This document shows positions 1 to 8,681 of a DNA stretch of 36,343 bases, piece after piece. The first letter of the stretch is position 1; every line of letters begins with the position of its first letter. The DNA is from Gemmatimonadota bacterium. Lineage in GTDB: Bacteria; Gemmatimonadota; Gemmatimonadetes; Gemmatimonadales; GWC2-71-9. The notes beneath the pieces were generated by a model that saw only the letters and a program-made list of their open reading frames with translations, did no database searches and was not told where the DNA came from. The position numbers and the translations under genes are program-made. The stretch lies in NCBI GenBank assembly GCA_003221005.1, contig QHTZ01000076.1, positions 1-36,343 of the forward strand, written 5' to 3'.

Positions 1-418
1 AAGCGCGCTGCGCCGCTTCGTACCAAGACCGCGCTTGGAGCGGCCGTCCCACGTGCTGTTCCGCGTGGCCGGCACGCAGCAAAGCCGCCACCACTTCGCC
101 CCCGTCGCCACGTTGCTGCGCTTCGAGGGCCTGCACGTACGCCCGATAGAGGACCTGGAGGTGCTCGGTGACCTGGTGGAACGCCTGCGGCATGCGGCGC
201 GTCAGCTCTTCAGGCTGCACGCCGCGCTTGCCGATGGTGAGATACGGGCCGGAGCTGGACCACAGCGCGCGCTCATCGGGGCGGGAGATGGAGACGAGGA
301 GCGCGCGCAAAGGTGCAACCACCTCGAGATCGGGGAGCAGCTCCAGCGCCTTGTCGACGCGCACCGGGACCGGAGCGGGCGAGGGGGAGGGCGAGGGGGA
401 GGAGCGGCCCGGGCTCAC
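1..418 (-). CDS. Truncated hypothetical protein (runs off window start), helical, possibly TPR-like
   Basis: Not in the ORF track. Its GTG at 418 overlaps the TGA of the upstream EBP gene (GTGA). The frame is open to the window edge: VSPGRSSPSPSPSPAPVPVRVDKALELLPDLEVVAPLRALL...VVAALLRAGHAEQHVGRPLQARSWYEAAQRA. Confidence 0.7.
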   Translation of the reverse strand, partial: MSPGRSSPSPSPSPAPVPVRVDKALELLPDLEVVAPLRALLVSISRPDERALWSSSGPYLTIGKRGVQPEELTRRMPQAFHQVTEHLQVLYRAYVQALEAQQRGDGGEVVAALLRAGHAEQHVGRPLQARSWYEAAQRA

Positions 419-1809
419 AACCCGTACTCCTTCATTTTCCGCGTCAGCGTGTTGCGGTGGATGCCGAGGATCTCCGCCGCGGCGCCGATCTGCCCGTTGG
501 TGTGCGCGAGTACACGCGCGATGTGGCGCGCTTCGAGCTCGGCCAGCGTGAGCAGGGCGCCCTGAGGCCGCTCGCCGAGCGTCGCCTCCTCGCCCCGGAA
601 TTCGTCGGGCAGGTGCTCCGCCCGCAGTACGTCGCCCGTCGCAACGATGACGGCCCGCTCGAGCACGTTGCGGAGCTCGCGCACGTTCCCCACCCAGGCG
701 TGGTTGCGGAGCAGGTCCAGCGCCCGGTCCGACATCGCCTGAATGCGCTTGCCGTAGCGCTCGGCGAACTGGCGGACGAAGTAGGCTGTGAGGAGCACCA
801 GATCGTCGCCCCGCTCGGCGAGGGTCGGAAGCCGGATGGTCACCACCGCGAGCCGGTAGTAGAGGTCCTCGCGGAACCGCCCTTGGGCGATCGCCTCCTT
901 GAGGTCGCGGTTCGTCGCGGCGATCAGGCGCACGTCCACGGGGATCGGCTCCCCGCCGCCGACCCGTTCGATCTCGCGCTCCTGGACGGCGCGGAGGATC
1001 TTGGCCTGGAGCGCGAGACTCATGTCCGCCACTTCGTCCAGGAACAGCGTGCCGCCGACAGCGTGCTCGAACCGTCCGATCTTGCGCGTGACGGCGCCGG
1101 TGAACGCCCCCTTTTCATGGCCGAACAGCTCGCTCTCCAGCAGGTTCTCCGGGATCGCGGCGCAGTTTACCGCGACGAACGGCGCCGTCGAGTGGGGGCC
1201 ATCCAGATGGATCGCGCGGGCGACGACCTCCTTCCCGGTGCCCGACTCACCCTGAATCAGCACCGTGGCGGCGCTCGGCCCCACGCGGGCCATGAGCTTG
1301 TAGACCTCCAGCATCGTGGGACTCTGACCCACGAGGGCGTATTGACCGACGGCGTGGTGCTCGACCGAGGGCAGCGGGACCGGGACCTCGACGGCGGCGG
1401 AGCGCACGCGCGCCAGGGCGCCGAGGAAGTCGTCCTTGCGGAGGGGCAGGGTCAGGAGGTCCAGCACGCCGAGGCTCTCGGCGCGCAACACCAGGCCCAT
1501 CGACGGATTGTCGGTCGCCGCGATCAGCCGGGGCGCGCCGCTCGCCCCGTGCAGCGCATCCACCCACCAGGCAAGATCGTCGTCTGCCCGCTCGCTCAAG
1601 ACGGCCACCACCAGGTCCCAGCGTTCGGCCGCGAGCTTGCGCACGGCCCGGGGTAGATCGGGCGCGCCCTCGACCTGGAGCGCCGCGTCCTCGGCCCACT
1701 GGCGCAGGCTCTGGACGACGCCTTCGTTCTCCTCACCGGCGACGACGAGAATCCGCACCCGCGACGAGTCCCCCTTCCGCGACGGAGCGGGGGGCGGGGA
1801 CGATTCCAT
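415..1809 (-). CDS. Sigma54-dependent enhancer-binding protein (pseudo-REC + AAA+ + Fis HTH)
   Basis: Walker A GESGTGKE, GAFTGA, LFLDEV, GRFREDLYYRL, WVGNVREL and C-terminal AAEILGIHRNTL. The N-terminal REC-like domain lacks the key Asp and Lys. Start is ATG 1809 or GTG 1815. Confidence 0.95.
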   Translation of the reverse strand: MESSPPPAPSRKGDSSRVRILVVAGEENEGVVQSLRQWAEDAALQVEGAPDLPRAVRKLAAERWDLVVAVLSERADDDLAWWVDALHGASGAPRLIAATDNPSMGLVLRAESLGVLDLLTLPLRKDDFLGALARVRSAAVEVPVPLPSVEHHAVGQYALVGQSPTMLEVYKLMARVGPSAATVLIQGESGTGKEVVARAIHLDGPHSTAPFVAVNCAAIPENLLESELFGHEKGAFTGAVTRKIGRFEHAVGGTLFLDEVADMSLALQAKILRAVQEREIERVGGGEPIPVDVRLIAATNRDLKEAIAQGRFREDLYYRLAVVTIRLPTLAERGDDLVLLTAYFVRQFAERYGKRIQAMSDRALDLLRNHAWVGNVRELRNVLERAVIVATGDVLRAEHLPDEFRGEEATLGERPQGALLTLAELEARHIARVLAHTNGQIGAAAEILGIHRNTLTRKMKEYGL

Positions 1810-1823
1810 TGACACCGGCGGTC

Positions 1824-2438
1824 TCAGGCGCCGCCTCCCGCGTCGCCCAGATACCGCGCTACCAGCACGAGCGCATCATCCGTACCCTTCGCATAGCGTG
1901 CGAGGATCTGGTCGGCGAGCTGCTGCGGCGTCGCATCGGACGCGATGCTCTCGGCGAACCCGCTCCTGATCCCGTCGGAGGCGAAGATGAGCGTATCGCC
2001 CGGCGTGAGACGGACGTGGTGCGCGTTGAGCGGGGGCAGCTCGGAGCCCACGATGCCGCCCGGCGTGACCAAGGCGGTCCGCCTAGGTCGCTCCGCGCGA
2101 TCGCCGTGGAGCAGCACACCCTCCACGTTGCCGACCCCGAGCCACGTCAGGGAGCGGTGCGCAAAACTGAGGAACGCGAGGCTCATCACTACCCCGCGCG
2201 TGCCGATCAACGCCTGGTGACACGCCTTCACCAGCGGCACCAGGGATTCGTCCGCCTGGCGGTCGAGCACGGCCACCGCAGCCCGGGCGGCGGTCGCGGC
2301 CTCGGCGCCGTGGCCGAGGCCGTCCACCACACCCAGAAGCACGCCTGTCGCCACGGGCTTTACCAAAGAGAGGTCACCCGACTCGCCAGCCAGCGCCGAC
2401 GTGGCGACGCCCCAGTCGATCACGGCGGTCGTGGTCAT
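1824..2438 (-). CDS. rsbX: RsbX-like PP2C/SpoIIE serine phosphatase
   Basis: SGD, VVDGLGHG, FASDG and TDD motifs; directly follows rsbT. Confidence 0.85.
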   Translation of the reverse strand: MTTTAVIDWGVATSALAGESGDLSLVKPVATGVLLGVVDGLGHGAEAATAARAAVAVLDRQADESLVPLVKACHQALIGTRGVVMSLAFLSFAHRSLTWLGVGNVEGVLLHGDRAERPRRTALVTPGGIVGSELPPLNAHHVRLTPGDTLIFASDGIRSGFAESIASDATPQQLADQILARYAKGTDDALVLVARYLGDAGGGA

Positions 2439-2445
2439 AGGCCCC

Positions 2446-2868
2446 TCAACCGAGCCGGCGCCATTTCTTCATGGTGACGGTCGTGCCCTGGCCCACCGCC
2501 GACGTGAGCTCGAACTCGTCCATGAGTCGCTTGGCGCCGGGGAGCCCGAGCCCGAGCCCGCCCGAAGTGGAATAGCCGTCCTGCAGCGCGCGCGCGATGT
2601 CGCGGATCCCGGGACCCTGATCGCGCGCGATCACGACCACGCCCTGCCGGTCGCCGTTCGCGACGACGCTGAGGACGATCTCTCCCCGCTTAGCGTACAT
2701 CAGGATATTGCGAGCGATCTCTGAGATGGCGGCAGCGATGACGGTCTGATCGCCGCTCGTGAACCCGGCGTTGGCCGCCACCTCCCGGCCCTGCTGGCGG
2801 GCCTGGACGACGTCCACGTCCGCCGCGATTGGGAGGCGCAACTCGTCAGCCACGGTCGATGCGTCCAC
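2446..2868 (-). CDS. rsbT: RsbT switch serine/threonine kinase
   Basis: ISEIARNILMYA, DQGPGI, GYST, GLGLGLPGAKRLMDEF and GTTVTMKKW; overlaps the end of rsbS. Confidence 0.93.
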   Translation of the reverse strand: MDASTVADELRLPIAADVDVVQARQQGREVAANAGFTSGDQTVIAAAISEIARNILMYAKRGEIVLSVVANGDRQGVVVIARDQGPGIRDIARALQDGYSTSGGLGLGLPGAKRLMDEFELTSAVGQGTTVTMKKWRRLG

Positions 2869-3247
2869 CTGGCGGACGGCGGTCCTCGAGCCGCCCCTCC
2901 CCCTGCTGATTGAGGAACGCCAATCCTTCTTCCAGGTCGAGCGCGGTCGCGACGCCCTTGAGCGTCAGACCGAGCTGGACCATGGCGAAAGCGACCTCTG
3001 GCTGGATGCCGACGATCACGGTGTCGGCGCCGCGCAGCCGCGCCATGTGAGCGATGTCGCGGAGCGTGCGGACGGCGAAGGAGTCCATCACGTCGAGCGC
3101 CGTGACGTCCACGATCACGCCCCTGGCGCGGAACCGCCCGACCCGCTCGATCAACGCCTCCCGCAGCTGCGAGAGATCGGCGTCCGTCAGCGCCGACTGA
3201 ATGGACGCGATCAGGTAGTGCCCCTGCTTCAGAATCGGAACTTCCAC
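2846..3247 (-). CDS. rsbS: RsbS stressosome antagonist (STAS)
   Basis: VPILK, VIVDVTALDVMDSF (Ser equivalent to B. subtilis S59), VGIQPEVA and TALDLEEG. Confidence 0.93.
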   Translation of the reverse strand: MEVPILKQGHYLIASIQSALTDADLSQLREALIERVGRFRARGVIVDVTALDVMDSFAVRTLRDIAHMARLRGADTVIVGIQPEVAFAMVQLGLTLKGVATALDLEEGLAFLNQQGEGRLEDRRPPGGRIDRG

Positions 3248-3276: not shown

Positions 3277-4185
3277 CTACGGTTTGGGAGCCAGGTCTTC
3301 GAGCGGCAGCACCTTGTACCCGAGCAGCCGCTCCGCCTCCTCGATGCCGCCTTGCAGGTCGCCGACCGTCGCCATCTCACTCAGGTCGACGCCGATGGTC
3401 ACCAGCGTCTGCGCAATCTCGGGCGAGAGGCCCGTGACGATGACGGTGGCGCCAAGCAGCCGCGACGCCTCCACGGTTTGGACCAGGTGGTTCGCCACGT
3501 TCGAGTCCATCGCGGCCACGCCGGTGATGTCGATCACGACCACCTTGGCGCGGTTGGTCCGGATGGCGCGCAACAGCTGTTCAGTCAGCTGACGCGCGCG
3601 CTGCGGGTCGATGACGCCGATGATCGGGAGAATGAGCAGGCGCTCGCGCACCTGGAGTACCGGCGTCGACAGCTCGCGGATCGCCTCCTGCTGCTGGCGG
3701 ATGATGCGCTCGCGCTCCTGCACGAAGCCGACCGCCACGGTGTTGGCGACACGGTTGGCCGCCGGCTCGTAGGCGTCGAGAATCCGGTTGAGCTTGTCGA
3801 AGTCTTCGTGGTACTTGCCGAACAGCGAGCGGGCCAGCACGTCGCGCAACAACAGCACGATGCCCACCACTTCATGGGTCTCGACGCCCCGCGGGATGAT
3901 GCGCTCCGAAAGGTTCCGCGCGTACGCCTGCAGGGCCTCGAATGTCCCCGTCTCGAGCGCCTCGACGTAGTTGTCGTAGACTGAGGTTGCTTCGGCGAAG
4001 ATTTCCTCTTCCGTCATCGCGGTGAGGAGTTGTGCGCGGGTGATACGGCGCGCCCACTCCTCACGCAGCTGAGTGCGGTTCTGGCGCAGGTGGGCGACCA
4101 GTTCGCGCAGCAGCGCTGCGGTGGACTCCGTATGAGCCAGCGGATCCTGTGGCAGCGGCGGCGCTTCTTTGGCTTTGGTGGCCAT
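3277..4185 (-). CDS. rsbR: RsbR stressosome co-antagonist (helical N-terminal sensor + STAS)
   Basis: QQQEAIRELSTPV linker, ILPIIGVID, VIDITGV and TGLSPEIAQTLV; first gene of the rsbRSTX operon. Confidence 0.93.
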   Translation of the reverse strand: MATKAKEAPPLPQDPLAHTESTAALLRELVAHLRQNRTQLREEWARRITRAQLLTAMTEEEIFAEATSVYDNYVEALETGTFEALQAYARNLSERIIPRGVETHEVVGIVLLLRDVLARSLFGKYHEDFDKLNRILDAYEPAANRVANTVAVGFVQERERIIRQQQEAIRELSTPVLQVRERLLILPIIGVIDPQRARQLTEQLLRAIRTNRAKVVVIDITGVAAMDSNVANHLVQTVEASRLLGATVIVTGLSPEIAQTLVTIGVDLSEMATVGDLQGGIEEAERLLGYKVLPLEDLAPKP

Positions 4186-4228
4186 GGCTGGCGGTCCTCG
4201 CCTGGTCGAATGTTGCTAGCACGCAACA

Positions 4229-4243
4229 GCAAGGCTAGTGCCA
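4229..4243 (-). promoter_or_regulatory. Sigma54 -24/-12 promoter for rsbRSTX-EBP
   Basis: Minus strand TGGCAC-TAGCC-TTGC, an exact consensus match 44 nt upstream of the rsbR ATG. Confidence 0.85.
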
Positions 4244-4268
4244 CTTGGCGACCCCCATCCCAGCGGGC

Positions 4269-4294
4269 GTAAGCAACTTATTCACAAGATGTTA
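4269..4294. promoter_or_regulatory. AT-rich IHF-like box
   Basis: GTAAGCAACTTATTCACAAGATGTTA lies 25 nt upstream of the -24 box and matches 19054-19079 at 18/26 positions. Confidence 0.5.
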
Positions 4295-4365
4295 TGGTTA
4301 AGAGCGGAACTGTCCGGAAGCCACCGTGCAGCGGATTGTGGCAGCAGCAGAGTTTGCGGGGCACC

Positions 4366-4487
4366 AAAAAAGGGCGCGGGGAGTTCGGGCACCATCGGAG
4401 TTCCGTCGGTGTGGCGCTGGAGCAGCGACGGAACGCAATCCACGAATGGTCAGCTCAAAGTCAGCCCGTACTCCCCGGCTATGCCCT
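4366..4487 (-). ncRNA. Structured RNA element, copy 1 (ends in U6 tract)
   Basis: Nested stems AGGGC/GCCCU, CGGGGAGU/ACUCCCCG, CGGGC/GCCCG, ACCAU/AUGGU and GUUCCGUCG/CGACGGAAC, followed by a U tract; near-identical to 6942-7054. Confidence 0.65.
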
Positions 4488-4506
4488 GCTGCTCTCCACT
4501 AAGGCC

Positions 4507-5178
4507 TCATAGGCTCGCGGCGCTCTGCGCCGTACCTACCACGATGTCGCCCGTGGGAGTGCCAAGGGGGCCGATGAGGTACACGTGAATCATGTTCACG
4601 GTCAGGCCGGTGCTGTGCACGCCGTCGCCGGTCGGAATCTGCTCGTTCAGCACCACATATCCCACGCCCGGCAGATTCACTTGGGTGTTCGGCGTGGGCG
4701 CTTCGTCGCCGTAGCTCGCGCCGTTGACCACCAGTCCCACGAGCGTCGAGCCGTCCGATTCGCTGGTCGCCCCGACGCCGTTCGCGTAGCTCGTCGCCAC
4801 CGCCAGCACTGCCCGGGCCGTGATCAATCCGTTCAGCACGCTCACGTTGGCGGCTTCGGCGGTCGTCGTTGCGGAAACGAGCGTCTGGTCGAGCTGGCCC
4901 GTCGTGATGGACGCAAGGCCATCCGCGGAGAGCGTGCTCGGCACCGCGACGGTGGCCAGCTCGGAGTCCGCCATTCCCCCGGAGCTCGGCAACGCGGCGA
5001 TCGCGAATTGCTGTGCGCCGCTCGTCGTGGTCACAGCCGCGGCGGCCCCCTGCCCCGATACGCTGCCGGACTGCCCCTCGGAGCGGACGGGCGCCAACGC
5101 GAAACCACTCACGACGACGAGCACGCTTAGCGTCGAGAGCCATCGCGCCACTGCGACTGGGATCGTTGTTCCGGTCAT
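4507..5178 (-). CDS. Secreted choice-of-anchor P-like protein, no anchor, copy 1
   Basis: Sec signal peptide, then LNGLITA and PNTQVNLPGVGYVVLNEQ...GLTVNMIHV. Paralog of 7108-7797. Family name is from recalled motif similarity. Confidence 0.75.
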   Translation of the reverse strand: MTGTTIPVAVARWLSTLSVLVVVSGFALAPVRSEGQSGSVSGQGAAAAVTTTSGAQQFAIAALPSSGGMADSELATVAVPSTLSADGLASITTGQLDQTLVSATTTAEAANVSVLNGLITARAVLAVATSYANGVGATSESDGSTLVGLVVNGASYGDEAPTPNTQVNLPGVGYVVLNEQIPTGDGVHSTGLTVNMIHVYLIGPLGTPTGDIVVGTAQSAASL

Positions 5179-5188
5179 AGGCTATCGC

Positions 5189-6712
5189 TCACTTGCTCTT
5201 GTGGAGCTGAATGTTGCCTCCACTGAGGTACCCGGACGCGTGGTAGTCGGCGATCGTGACGTCGATGTAATCCCTGCCGCGACCGGGCTCTCCGTTGTCG
5301 CACGCCGCATTCATCGTAAATGAGTACGTGCCGCTCGCCGAGGGTACGTCTTTGTCCTTGAGCATGCCGGTGCCGGACCAGGTCCGGCAGCTGGGCTGGC
5401 CTGAGACGAGGCTGTAGCTGCCCGGGGTGATCGTGCCCTTGAACGTGAAGTCGCCATACGCGCACGTCGCAGACCCCGAGTCCACGCCGTCCAGGCAATG
5501 CTGCACCCACTCAAACTTGCCTCCCGTCGGCTTAGCCTCGAAGCCGAAGGTTGCGAAATCGCGTTTGTCACCGAGCTTCCCGCCACCCGTCATCTTGCCG
5601 CTGGCCGCGACCGCGACGCAGCTCACCGCAAACGACGCCGTGGCCGTGCCACCTGAGGGCACCGTGACCGACTGCGGGTTGGGGTCGCTCACCGTGCAGT
5701 TCGCCGCCACGTCCGAGAGCATGACGCTATGGCTGCCCGCCGCGAGCGCGGAGAAGGTGACACTGCCGTTCGTCGCGATCGTCTGACTCTGGCTCTCGTC
5801 CACCGTGACGGTGTAGCCGTCGGCATCGAGATTCGAGCCGGTCGTGGTCGTCGTCACTGTCAGGTCGCCGGTCGCGGGCCCCGCCGGGTTGAGCGAGAAC
5901 ACGCTGGCAAGCCAGGTGCTCGGCGTGGTGAAGATCCAGTTCCACCGCGGCTCGACCGTGCCCGCGGTGGCCTGCGTAGCCGTGTCCGCCTCGTCGACGA
6001 GAAACGCATCGGACTGCTCGACGAAGACCCCAAAGCCCGGGGGCGGATCGCGACCGACCACGCTGTTCGAACTGGTGATGGCAAAGGCGAGCGCGCCGGC
6101 CTCGACCGCAACCGGGCCGGGATCGGCGACGGTGGGATACGAGGAGCCGGTGCCCGAGGCCGAGCGGTGCTCGCCGAGTGCCCCCGCCAGTGTCGGGTCG
6201 ACGCCGGTCCACGCTGAGATCATCACCCCGCCATCCTCCACCGGCAGCGCGAGGTTCGCCTGCACCGCCAGCACGTGCGCATCATCCGTGTTCGGGTCGG
6301 GAAAGCCCTGCACGTTGGTGGCGACGTACGTCGCCATCGAGATGAGGCCGTCCGACACAAACTCGACCAGCGTGTACGTGTTGCCGACGGGCGTCTGCTC
6401 CGCGTTGGTCAGTCGGTCCGTCACCGAGGTGATGATGTTCGTGTGCATCAGCGTGGGATCGATCCACAAGAAGGTCGCCACGATGGCGTCCCCCACGTGC
6501 GGGTTCGTCGGGTTGAACCCCTTCACGAGCACGTCGCCCTGCTCGTTGAACGACCCGTTCACCTGATCGAGGACGATTCCGCTCCCCGTTGCGTCGAACG
6601 TCGGGGCCGCGAGGCCACGCCGCTCGGGACCGATAGACTCGGTACAGCCCACGGCGAAGAGCGCGGCCGCCACGAGCACCTGAACGCCACGGATCGTTGT
6701 TTCCCTGCGCAT
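5189..6712 (-). CDS. Multidomain lipoprotein (507 aa) with Ig-like repeat and C-terminal post-COAP-1-like domain
   Basis: ATG 6712 with GAGG RBS, lipobox AVG-C, TGDLTVTTTTTGSNLDADGYTVTVD repeat, and C-terminal GKMTGGG..ATFGF..DNGEPG..LSGGNIQLH. Confidence 0.8.
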   Translation of the reverse strand: MRRETTIRGVQVLVAAALFAVGCTESIGPERRGLAAPTFDATGSGIVLDQVNGSFNEQGDVLVKGFNPTNPHVGDAIVATFLWIDPTLMHTNIITSVTDRLTNAEQTPVGNTYTLVEFVSDGLISMATYVATNVQGFPDPNTDDAHVLAVQANLALPVEDGGVMISAWTGVDPTLAGALGEHRSASGTGSSYPTVADPGPVAVEAGALAFAITSSNSVVGRDPPPGFGVFVEQSDAFLVDEADTATQATAGTVEPRWNWIFTTPSTWLASVFSLNPAGPATGDLTVTTTTTGSNLDADGYTVTVDESQSQTIATNGSVTFSALAAGSHSVMLSDVAANCTVSDPNPQSVTVPSGGTATASFAVSCVAVAASGKMTGGGKLGDKRDFATFGFEAKPTGGKFEWVQHCLDGVDSGSATCAYGDFTFKGTITPGSYSLVSGQPSCRTWSGTGMLKDKDVPSASGTYSFTMNAACDNGEPGRGRDYIDVTIADYHASGYLSGGNIQLHKSK

Positions 6713-6758
6713 CAAATGCCACCTCTGTGTCGGGCGCGGACCCTCATCGTGCTGCAAC

Positions 6759-6773
6759 GCAATCACGGTGCCA
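6759..6773 (-). promoter_or_regulatory. Sigma54 -24/-12 promoter
   Basis: Minus strand (TT)TGGCAC-CGTGA-TTGC, an exact consensus match 47 nt upstream of ATG 6712. Confidence 0.85.
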
Positions 6774-6894
6774 AAACGCCACGCCCCACAGTGTGGCGGC
6801 GGTGCGGCGATCGAGCGGCGCCAATCTCGTGCCGGGCGAATGGTGACCTGTCGCGAGTCGATGCGCGCGCGCCTGCGGTGTGGCGTGCACGTCG

Positions 6895-6929
6895 AAAACG
6901 AAAACGACCCGGTATGAACTGGGTCGTTC
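6895..6929 (-). terminator. Intrinsic terminator after RNA copy 2
   Basis: Minus strand AACGACCC-loop-GGGUCGUU followed by UUCGUUUU. Confidence 0.65.
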
Positions 6930-6941
6930 GCGTCCTGCCAA

Positions 6942-7054
6942 GCAGTGCGGGGAGCCGGGCTTACCTTCGGGGTCCCGCCGGTGTGCGCTGGAGCAGCGGC
7001 GGAACGCAATCCACGAATGGTCAACTCAAGTCAGCCCGTACTCCCCGACTATGC
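6942..7054 (-). ncRNA. Structured RNA element, copy 2
   Basis: Same nested stems as copy 1, with a compensatory U-A to C-G change and a U-A to U-G wobble in GUUCCGCCG/CGGCGGGAC. Confidence 0.65.
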
Positions 7055-7107
7055 GACTATGTCTCGCCCTTCTGCTCTACTGCCAGACTCGTGCCACCCG
7101 GTGCGGC

Positions 7108-7797
7108 TCAAGGCCCCACAGAGCTCGACGCCGACCCGACGATGATCTCACCGGTCGTCGTCGCGCCACCCAACAGACCCCCAGCGCTCTGCAGGTAGAC
7201 GTGAATCATGTTCACCGTCATGCCACTGCTCGTCACACCGTCGCCCGAGGGAATCTGCTCGTTCAACACGACATAGCCGACTCCCGGGAGATCCATATTG
7301 GTGTTGGGAGCGACCACGTCATCGCCCCACGTGACCGGCACGCCCGCTACCACGAGGTTCTGGAACGTGGAGCCGTCGGCGTTGCTGGCGGCGCCACTCG
7401 CGGTGCTCCTGCTCATGACGTTGGCAATCACCTCGTCCGCCGTGATCAGCCCGTTCAGGATGTTGATGTGCGCGGCGCTCGCTGTGCTCTGTGCACCCGA
7501 TTCTGTAGTCCCGATTTCGCCCGACGTGATGCTATTGAGGAAATCGGACGACAGGGCGTCCGGTACACTGAGCGCACTGCCTTGGGCGTCCGCTTCGGCG
7601 CCGTCGGTCCCCGAGACGGCCGGCAAGACCGCGAGCGGCGCCTGACCACTGGAAGCGGCGGGCGTGTTCACATACGTGCTGTACGCCTGGCCGGCCACCG
7701 ATTGGGCAACGCTCGCCCCCATGAACCCAGCGGTCAGCCCGACGACGAGACCGAAGGCCGCGAGGCAGTTCACCCAATGCATTCTCATGCTGTTCAT
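7108..7797 (-). CDS. Secreted choice-of-anchor P-like protein, no anchor, copy 2
   Basis: GGAG RBS, signal peptide ending ASVA-Q, then LNGLITA and PNTNMDLPGVGYVVLNEQ...GMTVNMIHV. Confidence 0.78.
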   Translation of the reverse strand: MNSMRMHWVNCLAAFGLVVGLTAGFMGASVAQSVAGQAYSTYVNTPAASSGQAPLAVLPAVSGTDGAEADAQGSALSVPDALSSDFLNSITSGEIGTTESGAQSTASAAHINILNGLITADEVIANVMSRSTASGAASNADGSTFQNLVVAGVPVTWGDDVVAPNTNMDLPGVGYVVLNEQIPSGDGVTSSGMTVNMIHVYLQSAGGLLGGATTTGEIIVGSASSSVGP

Positions 7798-7851: not shown

Positions 7852-8478
7852 TCACGACCCGTGATCGACGATGTTGCCGCCCGTCAAGTACGTGAGGTCC
7901 GTGTCCCCATATCCGGTGCTGATCCAGCGCATCGCATCGGTTCGGCTGTTCTGCGGCGCGCCACGATCGTTGTCGCACAGCTCCATCTGCACCTGGTCCG
8001 TGCCCTTGTTCCCGTCGACGCGCGCCGTGATGGGGTCCACACCGACCAGGAGACACGCGCCTCTGCCTGACGCGTCCGGGTCAATGAGCTCGGCGAACAC
8101 GGTCTCACCGTAGGCATCCTGCCCGTTGTGGATGGACACGTGCCAACTGGTGTGCGATGGGTGATGGTTGACTTCGATCTCGCCTTTGGTCACGATGCAT
8201 CGCCCGTCACCATCCGATCCGAGAAAGACATTGAACCCGAACGTGACCTTCCCTTCCAGCGTGCTCGTTCCAGTTGCGCCATCGTCGAAGTCTGGGTTGG
8301 GAGGGTCCATGCGGCCACCGCCGGTCCACTTCCCGGTGGGGCATTCTTCTACGCCGCCCCAAAAGCTCGGGCGGTGTGGTGCCATGTTGAGGTTCGTCTG
8401 ATCGCTGCAGGCCGCAGCTACCAGCGCGGCCGCGAGGAGACTCGGCCAGACGATGACGTTTCTCTGTTCTCGCATCAT
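7852..8478 (-). CDS. Lipoprotein with post-COAP-1-like domain
   Basis: Start ATG 8478 or 8475, lipobox AAA-C, and GKWTGGG..KVTFGF..LCDND..YLTGGNIVDH, homologous to the C-terminus of 5189-6712. Confidence 0.78.
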   Translation of the reverse strand: MMREQRNVIVWPSLLAAALVAAACSDQTNLNMAPHRPSFWGGVEECPTGKWTGGGRMDPPNPDFDDGATGTSTLEGKVTFGFNVFLGSDGDGRCIVTKGEIEVNHHPSHTSWHVSIHNGQDAYGETVFAELIDPDASGRGACLLVGVDPITARVDGNKGTDQVQMELCDNDRGAPQNSRTDAMRWISTGYGDTDLTYLTGGNIVDHGS

Positions 8479-8537
8479 GTGCGTTCTGCCCTCCTGCCCG
8501 GAGCGTTGGTGCGTTGACTTCCCGGGCACGCAGATGG

Positions 8538-8552
8538 GCAAACGCAGTGCCA
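8538..8552 (-). promoter_or_regulatory. Sigma54 -24/-12 promoter
   Basis: Minus strand TGGCAC-TGCGT-TTGC, an exact consensus match 60 nt upstream of ATG 8478. Confidence 0.85.
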
Positions 8553-8681
8553 CCACGGCGACCGCTGCAGCACGTTGGGATTACGAGAGATAGAAGGAAC
8601 GTCGCGGCGATGCAGCGATGCACGTGCAACGCGTTCGTGGCCACACGTGTCGTGCCCGCAGAACGCAGCCCCCATGCAACA

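Follow-up and report, generated by a model that had tools for sequence, protein, structure and literature searches.

Covarying structured RNAs with sigma-54-type promoter motifs, most often placed upstream of an rsbR stressosome-type operon in soil Gemmatimonadota

Introduction

What is the role of an element that stands twice on one contig, when the genes beside its two copies have drifted much further apart than the copies themselves? The question is raised by the window analysed here, i.e., the whole stretch of 36,343 nucleotides of contig QHTZ01000076.1 from a Gemmatimonadota bacterium (NCBI GenBank assembly GCA_003221005.1), in which two copies of a ~125-nt element, hereafter c1 and c2, lie on the minus strand, each 3' of a gene for a choice-of-anchor P (COAP) protein. 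A first interpretation made from the letters alone (hereafter the sequence-only reading) had taken them for a duplicated structured RNA downstream of secreted-protein genes. Our analyses identify c1 and c2 as members of a covarying RNA family found in soil Gemmatimonadota of one Gemmatimonadales family, and we lean cautiously towards the view that this is a family of sigma-54-dependent structured small RNAs (sRNAs), typically encoded as stand-alone units and functioning by their folded core. Rfam 15 and a full-text search of the literature gave no precedent for the RNA family, for its rod architecture or for a stressosome-type operon linked to it in Gemmatimonadota, while an sRNA with a sigma-54 promoter beside the operon of its regulator is an already known kind of system.

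Results

The two copies were delimited with covariance models (CM) built from five sequences (R1) and from 16 sequences (R2), and by their folds:

4359..4491, minus strand: RNA element copy 1 (c1), a rod of ~125 nt; CM scores of 101.6 bits (R1) and 88.8 bits (R2)
6930..7061, minus strand: RNA element copy 2 (c2); CM scores of 97.4 bits (R1) and 91.4 bits (R2)

Direct repeats of 45 nt (4414-4458 and 6985-7029) and 27 nt (4458-4484 and 7028-7054) join the copies at 96% identity, and c2 is the sole match when c1 is compared by BLAST with the whole genome of 2.79 Mb (88% over 109 nt, E 5e-31); both searches bear out the repeat pair of the sequence-only reading. Its remark that the flanks have diverged around conserved cores holds equally, the upstream COAP genes A (before c1) and C (before c2) being ~53% identical in nucleotides and ~45% identical in amino acids. 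The genome contains exactly two COAP genes, each with an RNA copy 3' of it, and model R2 adds a third, divergent copy of the RNA (G000:C101:3478-3603).

Folded on the minus strand, both copies form rods (-54.7 kcal/mol for c1 and -58.0 kcal/mol for c2; z ~-3.4, with none of 200 shuffles as good) that carry a 5'-side bulge of ~13 nt, which reproduces the architecture first proposed, and the compensatory change from U-A to C-G between the two copies is indeed present in the alignment. The same rod emerged from an independent MAFFT/RNAalifold analysis of the first five sequences. The combined alignment holds 49 model matches, 45 of them distinct; it is fitted to the model and to that extent favours the structure, and in it standard pairs occupy 89.6% of the pair cells of the distinct sequences and 43-58% once the 3' partners are slid by 1-3 columns, double-sided changes are seen at 31 of the 39 pairs, and none of 500 column shuffles reaches any of five covariation measures, in agreement with an earlier set of 16 sequences. 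Because G-U cells outnumber A-C cells 195 to 46 among the homologues, the minus strand is the transcribed one, as the sequence-only reading had argued from the two copies. In short, c1 and c2 are copies of a covarying structured RNA on the minus strand.

Conservation is distributed unevenly along the rod. Free covariation is seen in the rod base (helix 2), in helix 5 and in the distal portion of helix 4, and the apical part is variable in sequence and in length. Near-invariant are the CAUA loop by the rod base, the GAGYUG that closes a 5'-side internal loop of 7-13 nt, both strands of helix 3 (ACCA/UGGU and GG/CC), a 5-nt AUUGC bulge and the first pairs of helix 4; pairs 55:138, 61:131, 64:130 and 71:128 are constant in the 45 sequences, whereas the distal pairs vary freely. 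A pseudoknot between the bulge GAG(C/U) and a loop GCUC, offered in the sequence-only reading as its own inference, did not survive the comparison, since a complement of GAGY is kept in the apical part of only 4 of the 45 sequences, where shuffled apical parts give a mean of 2.2 and a maximum of 7. On reading the alignment, no conserved start codon or reading frame of a small open reading frame was found inside the element.

Searches of increasing breadth place the family within narrow taxonomic limits. Among 60 relatives, BLAST with c1 retrieved full-length homologues (72-74% identity) from three congeneric genomes, and the same three were all that turned up when species genomes were scanned for an exact 20-nt pattern from the core. 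One Gemmatimonadales family was sampled with 151 genomes; R1 matched 10 of these at full length and R2 matched 11, belonging to 6 of 78 genera, with 1-3 copies each. The order's two remaining families yielded nothing with R2 (0 of 62 and 0 of 27 genomes), and a covariance search of 11 other families of the phylum was likewise negative (0 of 79 genomes). A metagenome scan with a 19-nt core pattern yielded 80 loci, 45 of them holding a model match. The 17 matches in species-representative genomes constitute the unbiased set. The claim that the RNA is foreign to Rfam stood up to a covariance-model search of Rfam 15: the whole window gave 0 matches at the gathering threshold and, even at E <=10, none that overlapped c1, c2 or the element in nine diverse loci.

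The evidence that ties the RNA to sigma-54 is a promoter motif, which for c2 lies as follows:

7082..7096, minus strand: sigma-54-type -24/-12 motif TGGCAC-N5-TGGC, predicted promoter P1 of c2, 20 nt upstream of it, found by regular expression

Searched as [TC]GG[CT]A[CT]-N5-T[TG]GC on the same strand and <=150 nt upstream, such a motif precedes 35 of the 45 distinct instances, including c2 and the third copy of the genome, and 11 of the 17 unbiased matches; outside these positions, the loci contain it at a background rate of 0.0046 per 150 nt. The motif goes with the RNA core and not with rsbR, the first gene of the operon described below, because a second sigma-54 motif occurs in just 1 of 18 rsbR loci that have no RNA core and because G073, a congener of the carrier G138, has lost both: the core is replaced there by a short loop and P1 is gone, with the CAUA loop, helix 2 and the T-run kept in place. 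The genome of the window encodes rpoN, recognised by its DNA-binding domain (215.8 bits). The truncated derivative in G073 is found at L152 (G073:C11) 627-699, where the outer stem is kept and no sigma-54 motif lies upstream.

At its other end the element is commonly followed by signals of termination. In c1 the rod base, a GC-rich stem, runs into a U tract, and the ending in U6 that had been noticed earlier corresponds to the A-run 4366-4371 on the plus strand; the terminator said to follow c2 is present too:

6890..6936, minus strand: hairpin and U-rich tract, probable intrinsic terminator of c2 (-20.4 kcal/mol, z -3.9; then UUUUCGUUUUCG)

A T-run of at least 4 is found within the last 20 nt of the element in 26 of the 45 sequences, and a separate terminator hairpin follows c2, which is devoid of a rod-base U tract, and the copy in L030. 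A simple scan of 4100-7300 for terminators and sigma-70 promoters found no sigma-70-like site and nothing at the elements, the loop limit of the scan excluding both structures. Soil metagenome runs of 16 studies and, in part, two metatranscriptome runs contain the stretch, compared here as assembled contigs; contigs of the RNA libraries lie on gene C and on the 7852-8556 gene, and none lies over c1 (bins 4158-4545 are empty), which the DNA runs do cover, an absence that has no bearing on expression.

The gene that most regularly follows the element belongs to an operon of stressosome type, which in the window comprises:

4229..4243, minus strand: predicted sigma-54 promoter P2 of the rsbR operon, TGGCACTAGCCTTGC, identified by motif 115 nt after c1
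3277..4185, minus strand: RsbR-like gene (STAS and RsbRD_N; Pfam and synteny), 174 nt downstream of c1
2846..3247, minus strand: RsbS-like STAS protein (Pfam)
2446..2868, minus strand: RsbT-like HATPase_c_2 kinase (Pfam)
1824..2438, minus strand: SpoIIE/PP2C phosphatase (Pfam)
415..1815, minus strand: sigma-54 activator, AAA+ Sigma54_activat and HTH_8 (Pfam)

In 29 of the 45 instances the RsbR-like gene follows on the same strand, its start 168-182 nt beyond the element, and three further contigs end too early to tell. TGGCACTAGCCTTGC or a one-base variant, near-invariant, stands 113-116 nt after the element in 32 of the 45. The commonest place of the element is directly upstream of an rsbR-rsbS-rsbT-PP2C-activator operon with its own predicted sigma-54 promoter. 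An rsbR orthologue was found in 26 of the 151 family genomes, two of them unpublished, spread over 19 genera, and its product is unusually conserved (78-97% amino acid identity); with filters off, the upstream regions compared of 18 rsbR loci that have no adjacent model match hold no element (best score 17.4 bits; 2 of the 18 are cut by contig ends), so that the RNA is not an obligatory part of the operon.

The spacer in front of rsbR carries further motifs. A T-run followed by GTGCA(C), at times repeated or palindromic, lies ~115-130 nt upstream of the rsbR promoter (~4350-4375, minus strand, in the window) and is present also in the coreless loci L152-L169; to judge from its placement, it is a likely DNA binding site of the activator of the operon. 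Most rsbR loci have a conserved hairpin GTTGC-N6-GCAAC, of which the loop alone varies and which begins at the -12 element of the rsbR promoter (4186-4228, minus strand); it may be an operator or a leader structure. No clear activator site shared by P1 and P2 emerged, GTGCA/TGCAC being found 95-135 nt upstream of P2 in 18 of 34 cases and 60-200 nt upstream of P1 in 7 of 35 only. In the loci linked to an epimerase gene L036, L057, L059, L061, L086, L091, L093 and L110, a tandem 9-nt palindrome ATGCTGCAT lies ~95 nt upstream of P1 and its copies are a possible activator site; some loci have a similar word, ATGCTGC, in the spacer that leads to the rsbR promoter.

Upstream of the element, the neighbourhood is far less constant. 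A COAP gene lies there in 15 of the 45 distinct instances and a UDP-GlcNAc 2-epimerase gene in 16; one instance has a divergent sigma-54 activator gene, and the other 13 have another or unknown gene. That secreted-protein genes define the context is accordingly not supported: both copies of the window do follow COAP genes, but the family at large does so in a third of its instances. The epimerase next to the element is 53-79% identical between loci, as compared with 78-97% for the RsbR-like protein. Among the 17 unbiased matches, 6 lie before rsbR, 4 directly before proline dehydrogenase (Pro_dh), 2 divergent to RtcB and 5 elsewhere; these five adjoin, respectively, an aminotransferase/MsrB pair, post-COAP gene B, tRNA genes in a cluster, a gene for GNAT and a phosphoesterase gene that is convergent. 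L024 and L032 have a convergent gene on the downstream side, and in L003 the gene on the upstream side is divergent, so that read-through cannot supply the element; at these loci it must form a unit of its own and is neither a leader nor a 3' untranslated region (3'UTR). In many copies a same-strand gene is missing upstream or lies 200-500 nt away. Where the element is linked to a COAP gene, the promoter motif is located at or just after the upstream stop codon, and the RNA shares the terminator of that gene. Judged from gene order, the conserved context is the sigma-54 motif upstream together with the rsbR operon downstream, and not the COAP genes.

The COAP part of the window, in which all genes lie on the minus strand as they do in the rsbR part, contains:

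7852-8556, minus strand: secreted-looking gene, upstream of gene C
7108..7797, minus strand: COAP gene C, upstream of c2 (NF040603, 146.4 bits)
5189..6712, minus strand: gene B, with a post-COAP-1 domain (NF041523) and sigma-54-like motifs at 6759-6773 and 6820-6834
4507..5178, minus strand: COAP gene A (NF040603, 140.8 bits), its stop codon 15 nt before the CM boundary of c1

Read 5' to 3' on that strand, the order is thus the gene at 7852-8556, gene C, c2, gene B (after a gap of 218 nt), gene A, c1 and the operon from 4185. Related contigs have either COAP-C, P1, the element and rsbR (L099), or gene B, COAP-A, P1, the element and rsbR (L060, L069 and L075), and the genome of the window carries an added block of gene B, gene A and element between c2 and rsbR. 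The positional orthologues of c1 in L060, L069 and L075 carry TGGCACCAGGTTTGC directly after the COAP stop codon, exactly where the window and the near-identical metagenome contig L088 show a deletion of ~60 nt, by which c1, as the alignment reads, lost its own promoter motif. The identity of c1 is 84% with c2 and 73-76% with its positional orthologues, and because c1 is closer to c2 than to the latter, recent copying or gene conversion between the two copies is suggested. The pair illustrates a segmental duplication in which the RNA was kept at 84-88% identity while the adjoining coding sequence drifted to 45%. In soil DNA contigs of two runs, position 4244 is joined to 7123, 2878 nt being skipped, with 23 nt on the short side, which weakly hints at strains without the block of gene B, gene A and c1.

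Sigma-54-type motifs on the minus strand of the window start at 8552 (before the gene at 7852-8556), 7096 (c2), 6834 and 6773 (gene B) and 4243 (rsbR), and such an arrangement suggests a single sigma-54 regulon that takes in the RNA, the stressosome-like operon and the whole COAP/post-COAP cassette.

Discussion

How, then, might this RNA be made and what might it do? A typical gene of the family would consist of a sigma-54 promoter 20-120 nt upstream, the rod and a terminator, formed either by the rod base and its U tract or by a separate hairpin, and c2 shows this full layout of predicted promoter, rod and terminator. Because c1 seems to have lost its promoter by deletion, it would probably be made only as the 3' end of a gene B-gene A transcript, which itself would begin behind the sigma-54-like motifs at 6759-6773 and 6820-6834. 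The activator encoded at 415..1815 is a candidate driver of both P1 and P2, which would fire under its control, and the RNA would presumably act in trans. Since the conserved part is a double-stranded bulged core, invariant on both strands, we favour recognition through the fold, by a protein or other ligand that would bind the core as in GlmY or 6S RNA, over the pairing of a linear seed with a target. The sequence-only reading had considered a 3'UTR element, which suits c1, with no promoter of its own and its U6 terminator, but not the typical copies, which have their own sigma-54 motif and some of which stand alone; nothing points to cyclic di-GMP, a link that it had also entertained.

Several observations weigh against the view that the family consists of sigma-54-dependent sRNAs. 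The P1 motif is missing in 10 of the 45 instances, namely c1, its near-identical metagenome copy (L088), a further four linked to COAP genes and every one of the four linked to proline dehydrogenase, and no upstream activator site was recognised for P1 of c2. The support by numbers is not evenly drawn: 26 of the 45 distinct sequences come only from the metagenome scan with the 19-nt pattern, which returned 3 more that duplicate genome-derived ones, and the metagenome-derived set is biased to the rsbR-linked subgroup and includes many close kin. The T-run is followed by a conserved GTGCA that is found upstream of rsbR in elementless loci as well, so part of what we call terminator may be a DNA enhancer. 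The sole RNA-library contig that covers the element (X19; 6997-7255, exact) runs from the 3' end of gene C through P1 into the 5' half of c2; as contigs carry no transcript ends, X19 fits read-through from gene C, or library DNA, as well as initiation at P1. Local target duplexes are unconvincing too. Six translation starts were paired by RNAduplex with the 38-nt conserved 5' strand, namely those of the activator, of rsbR, of genes A, B and C and of the gene at 7852-8556. The best duplex was that with rsbR (z -1.96, with 9 of 200 shuffles as good), which is not significant for six tests, and none of the other five fell below the mean of the shuffles; in 2.8 Mb, chance alone would produce matches of 9-11 nt.

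The position of the element with respect to its downstream genes invites a different explanation, in which the element is a cis-acting leader or attenuator, riboswitch-like or protein-dependent, and in which transcripts begun at P1 or in upstream genes would enter the rod, and a rod stabilised by a ligand or protein would enforce termination at the U tract and thereby set the read-through into the rsbR operon, Pro_dh or gene B. The same orientation and fixed distance to rsbR in 29 of 45 instances would be accounted for, as would the four instances that end 0-98 nt before Pro_dh, the place of c2 218 nt before gene B, an invariant core that sits aptamer-like between covarying helices and a rod base that doubles as terminator stem. 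Yet a conserved sigma-54 promoter of rsbR's own follows the element in 32 of the 45, 18 orthologous rsbR loci do without the element, the downstream genes of L024 and L032 are convergent, the leader from P1 to the rod varies from ~0 to 60 nt with no conserved antiterminator pairing seen, and the downstream genes have no common pathway; we regard attenuation as unlikely on balance, though worth keeping in mind. The element might instead be a plain intrinsic terminator or 3'UTR stabiliser of the COAP and epimerase genes, shielding the rsbR operon from read-through. That c1 has U6 at its end and begins 15 nt past the gene A stop, and that an RNA-library contig leads from gene C into c2, would be natural consequences, and G073, with a hairpin of 73 nt and a T-run at the same place, indicates that a plain terminator is enough there. 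A terminator has no need, however, of an internal core kept invariant across six genera, it leaves the dedicated sigma-54 motif upstream of 35 of the 45 instances unexplained, L003 has no same-strand upstream gene to terminate and c2 requires a second hairpin to do so, all of which makes this explanation decidedly improbable.

Could a known rod-shaped RNA have escaped recognition? The shape and the conserved bulges recall 6S, signal recognition particle (SRP) and Y RNA. 6S RNA is likewise a rod, one with a conserved internal loop that is read by a protein, and 6S is unaccounted for in these genomes, RF00013 having no match in any of six family genomes; 6S RNA is nevertheless of ~180 nt, has a central two-sided bubble and is nearly universal, whereas the element is of ~125 nt, has bulges on the 5' side only, occurs in 11 of 151 family genomes with 1-3 copies, unlike a housekeeping RNA, and gives no RF00013 match. 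SRP RNA is rejected as well, RF00169 matching other loci in 5 of 5 relatives and not the element. As for Y RNA and YrlA, the likeness lies in a rod with a conserved bulged helix and in the two copies that are divergent to RtcB behind sigma-54 motifs, for which the rsr-yrlBA-rtcBA locus of Salmonella offers a parallel; the Ro protein domain TROVE (PF05731) is, however, absent from 5 of 5 element-carrying genomes, most copies are not near RtcB, and no Rfam family matches the element even at E <=10. A divergent form of one of these RNAs is thus very improbable. In the genome of the window RtcB is on other contigs, near no copy of the element. That genome (G000, 93.9% complete) has no match to bacterial SRP RNA, which 5 of 5 relatives have, and this is probably an assembly gap. 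We give hardly any credence to a mobile repeat (REP/MITE) or to an element that works as DNA, be it an activator array or a cruciform. At its 3' end the RNA element does abut the T-run and GTGCA ~115-130 nt upstream of the rsbR promoter, where activator sites would be expected, but the compensatory changes and the tolerance of G-U on one strand (195 against 46) reveal selection on RNA, and the 2 copies found by BLAST and 3 found by CM in 2.79 Mb are each syntenic, with a placement that is retained across genera and none of them scattered.

Returning to sigma-54-dependent sRNAs, there are precedents in other bacteria. GlmY acts by binding the protein RapZ rather than by pairing with an mRNA. 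Two reports place glmY directly upstream of qseEGF, which encodes its sigma-54 activator (PMC8745638, PMC6075780). The arrangement in Enterobacteriaceae (GlmY/qseE-qseG-qseF, or glrK-glrR) resembles ours in having a sigma-54 promoter and the same orientation, directly upstream of the operon of its own activator; it differs in that there is no match in sequence or structure, that the phylum is another one, that the adjoining operon here is RsbR/S/T-PP2C and not a two-component system, and that the element is one long rod. In contrast to the element, whose conserved part is double-stranded, the Qrr RNAs have a single-stranded seed; they are short, depend on Hfq and fold into several hairpins. 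Shared with them are sibling copies in a genome and a dependence on sigma-54 and an activator, which for the element is predicted; for Vibrio Qrr1-5, a preprint reports dependence on sigma-54 and LuxO and several sibling copies per genome (bioRxiv 10.1101/2021.07.01.450815). The COAP-linked copies, with a motif at or after the stop codon and the terminator of the upstream gene shared, further resemble a third kind of sRNA. MicL and DapZ are 3'UTR sRNAs with an internal promoter, from which the family departs through its many copies that have no same-strand upstream gene or lie 200-500 nt away from one.

It is tempting to go one step further and to picture the RNA as an arm of a stressosome-to-sigma-54 pathway, in which the activator would switch on both the operon and the RNA, and the core would bind stressosome proteins, the activator or the sigma-54 holoenzyme as feedback; this remains a long shot, which if true would make the RNA a structured decoy for a sigma-54 circuit, comparable to 6S RNA for sigma-70. 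Our full-text search found no paper on regulatory RNAs in Gemmatimonadota and none linking the stressosome protein RsbR to sigma-54 enhancer-binding. Gemmatimonadota are abundant in soil, and a strongly covarying family of 45 distinct sequences, for which promoter and terminator are predicted, joins two poorly connected subjects, sigma-54 regulons and the RsbR/S/T stressosome-type modules outside Firmicutes. The invariant bulged double-stranded core provides a concrete handle for pull-downs and structure probing.

Two less common settings of the element deserve a description of their own. In L029 (997-1298), three tRNA genes stand 200-500 nt upstream of a divergent copy, with a sigma-54 motif in between. 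The copies linked to proline dehydrogenase, L022, L025, L027 and L028 (in G009, G109, G033 and G177), have an extra GC-rich hairpin before the element, and 0-98 nt separate the end of the element from the start codon. Just in front of the Pro_dh ATG stand short words rich in AT that could, by way of speculation, be -10 boxes of a leaderless mRNA.

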